From a virus (taxonomy: Duplodnaviria > Heunggongvirae > Uroviricota > Caudoviricetes), in the IMG/VR virus record IMGVR_UViG_2872164251_000003, positions 1-18,466 of that record: a stretch of DNA of 18,466 nucleotides; one strand, given 5' to 3'. Position 1 is the stretch's first letter. The number at the start of each line of letters is the position of its first letter. This document shows positions 16,113 to 17,330 of this stretch, piece by piece. The position numbers were made by a program, and so were the translations under genes. The notes under the pieces are model-generated. The model was given only the letters and a program-made list of their open reading frames with translations, was not told where the DNA came from and searched no databases.

Positions 16113-16549
16113 GTTCTATTTTCCGAATTTGCTGAAGTATGACCCTGATCAGTTCGGTCCGGATTTAATTGAGCAACTAGCTCAATCCGGTAAGTATTCG
16201 CAGGATAACACCAAAGGCGATGCCATGATTGGCGTCAAGCAGCCTTTACCAAAAGCAGTTTTAAGAACTCAGCATGACAAAAATAAAGAAGCAATAAGTA
16301 TCCTGGATTTTGGTGTTATTGATGATGGTGTGACAGATAATTACCAGGCAATACAAAATGCAATAGATGCCGTTGCTTCACTACCCTCCGGCGGGGAGCT
16401 GTTTATCCCTGCGAGCAACCAAGCGGTGGGGTATATTGTTGGATCCACTTTGCTTATTCCTTGCGGTGTTAACATCAGAGGGGTTGGTAAGGCATCGCAA
16501 CTCCGAGCAAAAAGCGGACTTACAGGATCTGTGTTAAGGCTGTCTTATG
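16113..16549 (+). pseudogene. Tailspike middle fragment (continuation after head-binding domain), interrupted by IS1
   Basis: Frame open from the first base after the IS629 end: FYFPNLLKYDPDQFGPDLIEQ...; LKYDPDQ matches the P22 tailspike linker that follows the head-binding domain; frame ends in IS1-encoded stop. Confidence 0.75.
16541..16549. repeat. 9-bp target site duplication TGTCTTATG (left copy) of IS1 copy 2
   Basis: Identical 9-mer TGTCTTATG directly abuts both IS1 termini (16541-16549 and 17322-17330). Confidence 0.9.
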
Positions 16550-16564
16550 GGTAATGACTCCAAC

Positions 16565-17072
16565 TTACTGATAGTGTTTTATGTTCAGATAATGCCCGAT
16601 GACCTTGTCATGCAGCTCCACCGATTTTGAGAACGACAGTGACTTCCGTCCCAGCCTTGCCAGATGTTGTCTCAGATTCAGATTATGTCGCTCAATGCGC
16701 TGAGTGTAACGCTTGCTGATAACGTGCAGCTTTCCCTTCCTTCAGGCGTGATTCATACAGCGGCCAGCCATCCGTCATCCATACCACGACCTCAAAGGCC
16801 GACAGCAGGCTCAGAAGACGCTCCAGTGTGGCCAGAGTGCGTTCACCGAAGACGTGCGCCACAACCGTCCTCCGTATCCTGTCATACGCGTAAAACAGCC
16901 AGCGCTGACGTGATTTAGCACCGACGTAGCCCCAATGTTCGTCCATTTCAGCGCAGACAATCACATCACTGCCCGGTTGTATGCGCGAGGTTACCGACTG
17001 CGGCCTGAGTTTTTTAAGTGACGTAAAACCGTGTTGAGGCCAACGCCCATAATGCGTGCACTGGCGCGACAT
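16565..17072 (-). pseudogene. insB: IS1 insB, frameshifted by 4-bp tandem duplication
   Basis: Copy 2 reads ctttcccttccttcaggcg where copy 1 has ctttcccttcaggcg; the ORF then ends prematurely (…[21 protein letters not shown]) instead of the 167-aa InsB. Confidence 0.75.
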
Positions 17073-17266
17073 CCGACGCCATTCATGGCCATATCAATGA
17101 TTTTCTGGTGCGTACCGGGCTGAGAGGCGGTGTAAGTGAACTGTAGTTGCCATGTTTTACGGCAATGAGAGCAGAGATAGCGCTGATGTCCGGCAGTGCT
17201 TTTGCCGTTACGCACCACGCCTTCAGTAGCGGAGCAGGAAGGACATCTGATGGAAATGGAAGCCAC
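16991..17266 (-). CDS. insA: IS1 InsA (91 aa)
   Basis: Same as copy 1 apart from one substitution (A to G near the C-terminus). Confidence 0.85.
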
Positions 17267-17321
17267 GCAAGCACCTTAAAATCACCATCATACACTAAAT
17301 CAGTAAGTTGGCAGCATTACC

Positions 17322-17330
17322 TGTCTTATG
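17322..17330. repeat. 9-bp target site duplication TGTCTTATG (right copy) of IS1 copy 2
   Basis: See left copy. Confidence 0.9.

Follow-up and report, generated by a model that had tools for sequence, protein, structure and literature searches.

An IS1 insertion with a 9-bp target-site duplication in the Sf6-type tailspike pseudogene of Shigella flexneri SFL1520

IS1 is a 768-bp insertion sequence whose transposase, a DDE enzyme, also moves elements in trans, although less well than in cis, and shows a strong cis preference (PMC12903888). IS elements make up about 7% of the genome of Shigella flexneri strain SFL1520, which was assembled from MinION and MiSeq reads and in which 152 of the 355 predicted IS-element ORFs belong to the IS1 family (Genome Biol Evol 2019, PMC6424224). 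The same paper covers the oac (SHI-O) region of this strain and describes Sf6 remnants with an intact oac and flanking transposases, in collinear or inverted synteny with phage Sf6 (PMC6424224). Its text has no occurrence of the word tailspike, and the exact IS1 insertion, the target duplication and the 772-bp IS1 variant discussed below are likewise absent from it. The locus is therefore already published, at coarse resolution. A paper on oac1b (PMC3630932) was set aside, as it concerns a different, non-Sf6 prophage.

The stretch of DNA that we analysed, 18,466 bases long and called the window here, is 100% identical over its whole length to CP032513.1, the chromosome of S. flexneri serotype 3b strain SFL1520. 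The oac gene lies just beyond the window end, convergent with a tailspike gene. From this context, the Sf6 remnant has probably been kept because the adjacent oac serotype-conversion gene, which determines serotype 3b, is under selection.

The tailspike gene contains an IS1 of 772 bp at positions 16550-17321, placed on the minus strand so that insA and insB are transcribed antisense to the tailspike. The element starts with GGTAATGACTCCAACTTACTGAT and ends with ATCAGTAAGTTGGCAGCATTACC, which are the IS1 inverted repeats; the right repeat GGTAATGACTCCAACTTACTGAT occupies 16550-16572 on the plus strand and the left repeat, GGTAATGCTGCCAACTTACTGAT on the minus strand, 17299-17321. A length of about 768 bp (here 768 bp plus a 4-bp duplication) and roughly 23-bp imperfect terminal inverted repeats starting GGTRATG are typical of the IS1 family. 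Megablast matched the sequence of 16550-17321 to IS1, annotated as IS1 family transposase, in 4,971 of 5,426 complete Escherichia coli genomes. The earlier note had claimed a perfect 9-bp duplication directly beside the element, and this is what we found: TGTCTTATG stands on the plus strand at 16541-16549 (left copy, equal to tailspike gene nt 728-736) and at 17322-17330 (right copy). With both strands searched, these were exactly the two copies in the window, both on the plus strand, against 0.14 expected by chance. IS1-family members duplicate 9 bp (occasionally 8-10 bp) of their target as a direct repeat; here the repeat is perfect, and it is single in empty sites.

Could the two 9-mers match by chance, or be part of the element, with the IS1 having come by recombination or rearrangement? 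Several other IS1 copies in related genomes have no target-site duplication, showing that IS1-IS1 recombination is common in this organism. Here, however, every empty site has one 9-mer, and the flanks keep exact collinearity with Sf6 gene 14. The probability that nine bases abutting both IS ends agree by chance is 4^-9, or about 4e-6. The flanks of the other IS1 copies, both the one at window 1-753 and those at other loci, are unrelated to TGTCTTATG, which disposes of the objection, raised in the earlier note itself, that the 9-mer might belong to IS1 ends in general. We regard an origin by recombination or coincidence as extremely improbable. The simple transposition proposed in the earlier note agrees with the collinear flanks and the single 9-mer of the empty sites, and we put at about 93% the probability that the IS1 at 16550-17321 genuinely transposed, by a simple insertion, into codon 246 of the Sf6-type tailspike gene of the SFL1520 remnant.

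Excision of 16550-17330 in silico gave an open frame, ...SVLRLSYDSDTIGRYL..., that continues up to a stop at 18464-18466, the end of the window. In it ...SVLRLSY runs into DSDTIGRYL... in the same frame, as had been predicted. The repaired frame of 524 aa is 99.2% identical to Sf6 gene 14, the tailspike endorhamnosidase (tblastn), and gave full-length matches to 7SG7 and 2VBE/2VBK/2VBM (phmmer, E-value 0, 1158-1178 bits); the tailspike also matched the Pfam families PF21519 and PF12708. The earlier note had suggested looking for an uninterrupted homologue, and homologues uninterrupted at the insertion site were found in Sf6 gene 14 and in an E. coli prophage. Sf6 gene 14 has the same residues across the site and a single 9-mer at gene nt 728-736, which places the IS1 inside codon 246. 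In the Sf6 tailspike literature, residues are numbered as codons minus one; codon 246 neighbours literature residue Ser246 of the octasaccharide site, in the beta-helix O-antigen-binding part. It falls within the crystallised Sf6 receptor-binding fragment, residues 110-623, so that the description of the insertion as lying inside the receptor-binding region was correct. The site is upstream of the catalytic residues E366 and D399 (literature numbering), which are conserved here as Glu codon 367 and Asp codon 400.

The gene now lies in three pieces. The 5' piece (codons 1-101) is inverted and displaced to 10530-10831 on the minus strand, where it ends with a GTT copy at 10530-10532 and contains the Head_binding domain (PF09008, E=1.7e-59, in 10490-10831, minus strand). 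The middle piece (codons 101-246) occupies 16113-16549 on the plus strand and begins with GTT at 16113-16115, the target duplication of an IS629-type element. The 3' piece, from codon 246 to the stop, occupies 17331-18466 on the plus strand and carries the Tailspike_C domain with the catalytic E366/D399. When all three events (the IS629-type insertion, an inversion and the IS1 insertion) were reversed in silico, we obtained an ORF of 1872 nt and 623 codons without stop or frameshift. This reconstructed gene differs from Sf6 gene 14 at 18 of 1872 nt and 9 aa, and both have Head_binding and Tailspike_C domains. Unlike Sf6 gene 14, the copy here lies in three pieces spread over both strands; it could not be expressed as a tailspike and is a pseudogene. 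The three events are its only lesions, and the reconstructed gene shows no point-mutational decay, indicating that all three are recent.

The upstream tailspike piece stops two codons into the IS1 (...LSYG*), and the downstream 378 codons are left without a start. Two hybrid ORFs over the tailspike/IS1 junctions are called as genes in public annotations. The first, at 16129-16554, encodes 141 aa and ends two codons into the IS1; the second, at 17147-18466, encodes 439 or 426 aa and starts inside the IS1, antisense to insA. Both are most likely annotation artefacts. An outward IS1 promoter or a meaningful fusion ORF at 17147-18466 was considered and rejected, as nothing spoke in support of it. 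The product of 17147-18466 would moreover be without the head-binding domain and about the first 135 residues of the crystallised fragment 110-623.

We compared the insertion site across ten long contigs that share the exact IpaH, namely CP032513.1 and nine S. flexneri genomes (L012-L015 and L017-L021). All nine have the empty site AAGGCTGTCTTATGATTCAGACAC, with one 9-mer and no IS1, and are 99.7-99.8% identical around the insertion site. The empty site with a single 9-mer is also present in Sf6, in a P22-like prophage of E. coli CFSAN061762 and in three IMG/VR contigs. Filled junctions were traced through the junction-spanning 141-aa ORF (...LSYG*) and were found, 100% identical to the window, in CP032513.1 and in the independent drafts AFGW01000026.1 and AKMX01000030.1. 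In addition, three short-read contigs (L024-L026) cross the left junction, also at 100% identity. An exact-pattern scan for the left junction gave no match in the GTDB species representatives, which apparently hold no close SFL1520 relative, and the split tailspike arrangement was present in no E. coli complete genome searched. The filled junction in independent assemblies, together with the empty sites in relatives, establishes that the insertion is real and lineage-specific. It is vertically inherited in a small clade; the nine related genomes have the remnant but not the insertion.

Another reading is an assembly error: a hybrid assembly of nanopore and Illumina reads, from a genome with very many IS1 copies, could have put the IS1 or its 4 extra bases in the wrong place or introduced them in polishing. 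Such an artefact would fit an assembly of MinION and MiSeq reads with 152 predicted IS1-family ORFs, and the 772-bp form was not found in E. coli RefSeq complete genomes, the GTDB representatives, IMG/VR or the 5,000 best-scoring PLSDB records. But AFGW01000026.1 and AKMX01000030.1 are 100% identical to the window across the IS1, the 4-bp duplication included, the left junction is crossed by the three short-read contigs, and in the SFL1520 assembly the IS1 next to this one has the normal length of 768 bp. We give an assembly artefact virtually no credence.

The second mobile element in the tailspike gene is a complete IS629-type element of the IS3 family, 1310 bp long, at 14803-16112 on the minus strand. 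It encodes an orfA of 108 aa (15732-16058) and an orfB of 296 aa (14845-15735), with Pfam matches to HTH_Tnp_1 and rve, and has TGAACCGCCCCGGG termini. Its length, orfA and orfB sizes, termini and 3-4-bp target-site duplication are those of an IS629-type element; the name IS629 is based on these dimensions and on the RefSeq annotation of weaker matches. The element now stands between the fragment of a P22-gp7-like ejection gene and the middle piece of the tailspike, which it abuts at gene nt 302. A partial IS629-type copy in inverted orientation, at 9554-10529 on the plus strand, forms the other inversion endpoint, and the 5' 302 nt of the tailspike, 5.2 kb away on the opposite strand, abut its end. 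Sf6 has a single GTT where the two break points here have one each, which makes GTT the 3-bp target duplication of the IS629-type element.

The IS629-type element splits tailspike codon 101 in every related genome examined, with or without the IS1. In the nine that lack the IS1 it is the only element splitting the tailspike, and the gp7'-gp20-gp16-tailspike-5' block is collinear, whereas in SFL1520, AFGW and AKMX this block (about 10530-14802) is inverted, with endpoints inside the two inverted IS629-type copies. The inversion is homologous recombination between these two copies, and it co-occurs with the IS1 insertion in all three long assemblies that have either. By parsimony, the IS629-type insertion came first, because it is common to all related genomes examined, and the inversion and the IS1 insertion followed, in either order, on the SFL1520 branch. 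The IS1 had been described in the earlier note as a third independent lesion in the gene. The number of lesions holds, but their independence does not, since the inversion depends on the IS629-type insertion.

The tailspike was already split at codon 101 when the IS1 landed, and the IS1 therefore had no phenotypic effect of its own. Three lesions in one 1.9-kb gene, next to an intact oac, could also be read as selected inactivation, with the IS1 favoured for silencing a harmful endorhamnosidase able to cleave the O-antigen of its own host; this would explain the repeated damage. We consider it very unlikely, as the codon-101 insertion in all related genomes examined means that the gene was split before the IS1 arrived. 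Moreover, in a genome that is about 7% IS, and with four IS copies in the 18.5-kb window, a second insertion into a pseudogene is expected under neutrality. The IS1 insertion in the tailspike is an ordinary event in a pseudogene of an already published genome.

Other copies of the remnant differ in their state of decay. In L017 (GCA_030646415.1) a further IS3-family element lies inside gp16 (called as 498 aa), which shows that IS elements are still eroding this remnant, independently, in other lineages. In L002 (SRR060017) gp7 is untruncated at 230 aa, that is, a less decayed version.

The remainder of the window holds a lambdoid prophage region. A second IS1, at 1-753, is of the normal 768-bp type; the window start cuts through it, and its orientation is that of the tailspike copy. 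This IS1 immediately precedes the lambdoid J gene and is not flanked by a target duplication. Beyond it, SFL1520 has a chromosomal lactonase-like gene, where the sister genomes have the remaining tail-module genes (I, K, L, M and the tape measure gene). This indicates that an IS1-associated deletion removed most of the ipaH-carrying lambdoid prophage in SFL1520. The lambdoid tail-tip gene J (937-4416) is one intact ORF of 1159 aa in the window and two ORFs of 284 and 873 aa in L012, L014, L015 and L021, where genes are called in the region; either a frameshift or stop is common to those sister genomes or the assembly of the window differs. A chromosomal ipaH, encoding a type III effector of 587 aa with LRR_TTSS and NEL E3 ligase domains, lies at 7316-9079 on the minus strand. 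It marks the distal end of the lambdoid module for tail fibres (lom, stf, tfa), directly adjoins the Sf6 remnant and, in this position, points to Shigella or EIEC. Between ipaH and the partial IS629 copy, positions 9265-9564 are 88-92% similar to the Sf6 sequence just downstream of oac (the 3' end of the integrase gene) and to its counterpart in E. coli CFSAN061762, an integrase-gene remnant that follows the acyltransferase gene. This segment probably survives from a second Sf6-like integration module or att region.

The tailspike IS1 itself departs from the standard form. It is identical to S. flexneri IS1 at all 768 aligned positions and 99.5% identical over 772. Alignment with the neighbouring IS1 (window 1-753) revealed, apart from one substitution, a 4-bp tandem duplication at 16735-16738, which frameshifts insB. 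The duplication can be written as CCTT or CTTC on the plus strand and as GAAG or AAGG in IS orientation (context 16734-16746), where CTGAAGGAAGGGAAAG stands in this copy against CTGAAGGGAAAG in the standard copy. The insA gene is intact, encoding 91 aa at 16991-17266 on the minus strand with Zn_ribbon_InsA and HTH_Tnp_IS1 matches (PF03811, PF12759), and the A6C programmed -1 frameshift motif, TTAAAAAACTC on the minus strand, is present at 17007-17018. The insB frame (16692-17072, minus strand) is truncated to 126 aa compared with 167. It is in frame up to about residue 112 and ends in 14 out-of-frame residues and a stop. It covers positions 1-78 of the 131 in the DDE_Tnp_IS1 profile (PF03400), positions 79-131 being lost through the 4-bp frameshift. 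The part lost from InsB presumably includes the segment carrying the catalytic Glu.

An insA with zinc ribbon and HTH, an insB' in the -1 frame and the A6C slippery motif are all as in other IS1-family elements, while the complete DDE_Tnp_IS1 domain of an autonomous copy is missing, making this a defective member of the family and not a non-member. Unlike standard IS1, it has a truncated InsB; it shares with it the 23-bp inverted repeats, insA, the A6C motif and the 9-bp duplication. Judged from its sequence, the 772-bp copy should be unable to make full-length, active InsAB'.

Megablast of the 772-bp variant found only 768-bp copies, the best at 99.5% identity, both in the E. coli complete genomes and among the 5,000 best-scoring PLSDB records. 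The 4-bp duplication was not found in GTDB species representatives by exact-pattern scan, nor was the variant found in a scan of IMG/VR. In the AFGW and AKMX drafts, however, the exact 126-aa product is encoded at seven or more distinct loci; this multi-site count comes from two draft assemblies, GCA_000213695.2 and GCA_000268245.1 (loci L028-L037). Five of those other-site copies are 100% identical to the tailspike copy over the aligned length. One 772-bp copy (L031) has its own perfect 9-bp duplication, CTGTGTGTT, and most of the others have no recognisable target-site duplication. A copy-specific SNP recurs at the same locus in both drafts (L029 and L034), which argues that the 772-bp copies are truly resolved. 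The presence of the identical variant at seven or more sites makes it most likely that the frameshift is older than the tailspike insertion.

This distribution suggests, tentatively and at somewhat less than an even chance, that the 772-bp IS1 may be a non-autonomous subfamily that recently spread to at least seven sites in one S. flexneri lineage with transposase supplied in trans by the many autonomous IS1 copies. Laboratory mini-IS1 and immobile IS1 copies, for which trans movement has been shown, likewise have intact inverted repeats and a defective transposase gene (PMC12903888). In contrast to mini-IS1, what speaks for such movement of the 772-bp variant is its distribution over seven or more sites.

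The IS1 could instead have inserted as a 768-bp autonomous copy and acquired the 4-bp frameshift later, by in-situ decay or by gene conversion, a process that occurs among IS copies. All insertion-bearing genomes form one close lineage, and the frameshift could have arisen after the insertion and before their common ancestor. Against this speak the seven or more sites with the identical duplication, one of which has its own 9-bp target-site duplication. Independent recurrence of the same 4-bp duplication is unlikely, which leaves gene conversion as the only serious remaining alternative; it could spread the duplication without trans-mobilisation. We think a later frameshift unlikely, though well short of negligible. 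Whether spread by transposition in trans or by conversion, the multi-copy frameshifted 772-bp variant is the one mildly new element here.

In IS1 transposition, InsAB' makes 9-bp staggered cuts in the target, and repair creates the duplication. By this textbook chemistry, InsAB' would have cut TGTCTTATG in the tailspike gene with a 9-bp stagger and joined the IS ends to the cut target; filling of the gaps would then have doubled the 9-mer. On the simplest reading, the element was already defective and would have been moved by the transposase of other IS1 copies in the genome. The route, going by established IS1 biology, may have been non-replicative, or else intermolecular replicative transposition followed by resolution, because intramolecular replicative events yield deletions or inversions, whereas here we see a simple insertion with intact flanks.

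The locus is a clean textbook example of an IS1 insertion and illustrates the well-known IS-driven decay of Shigella prophages. The region gives an ordered series of events, an IS629-type insertion followed by an inversion and an IS1 insertion, and the filled site can serve to mark the lineage of a small S. flexneri clade that has oac. If the 772-bp IS1 did spread with transposase provided in trans, the tailspike insertion would be one dated event of this burst, marked by its target-site duplication, and the variant would be a natural case in which a defective derivative parasitises IS1, even though the enzyme prefers to act in cis.
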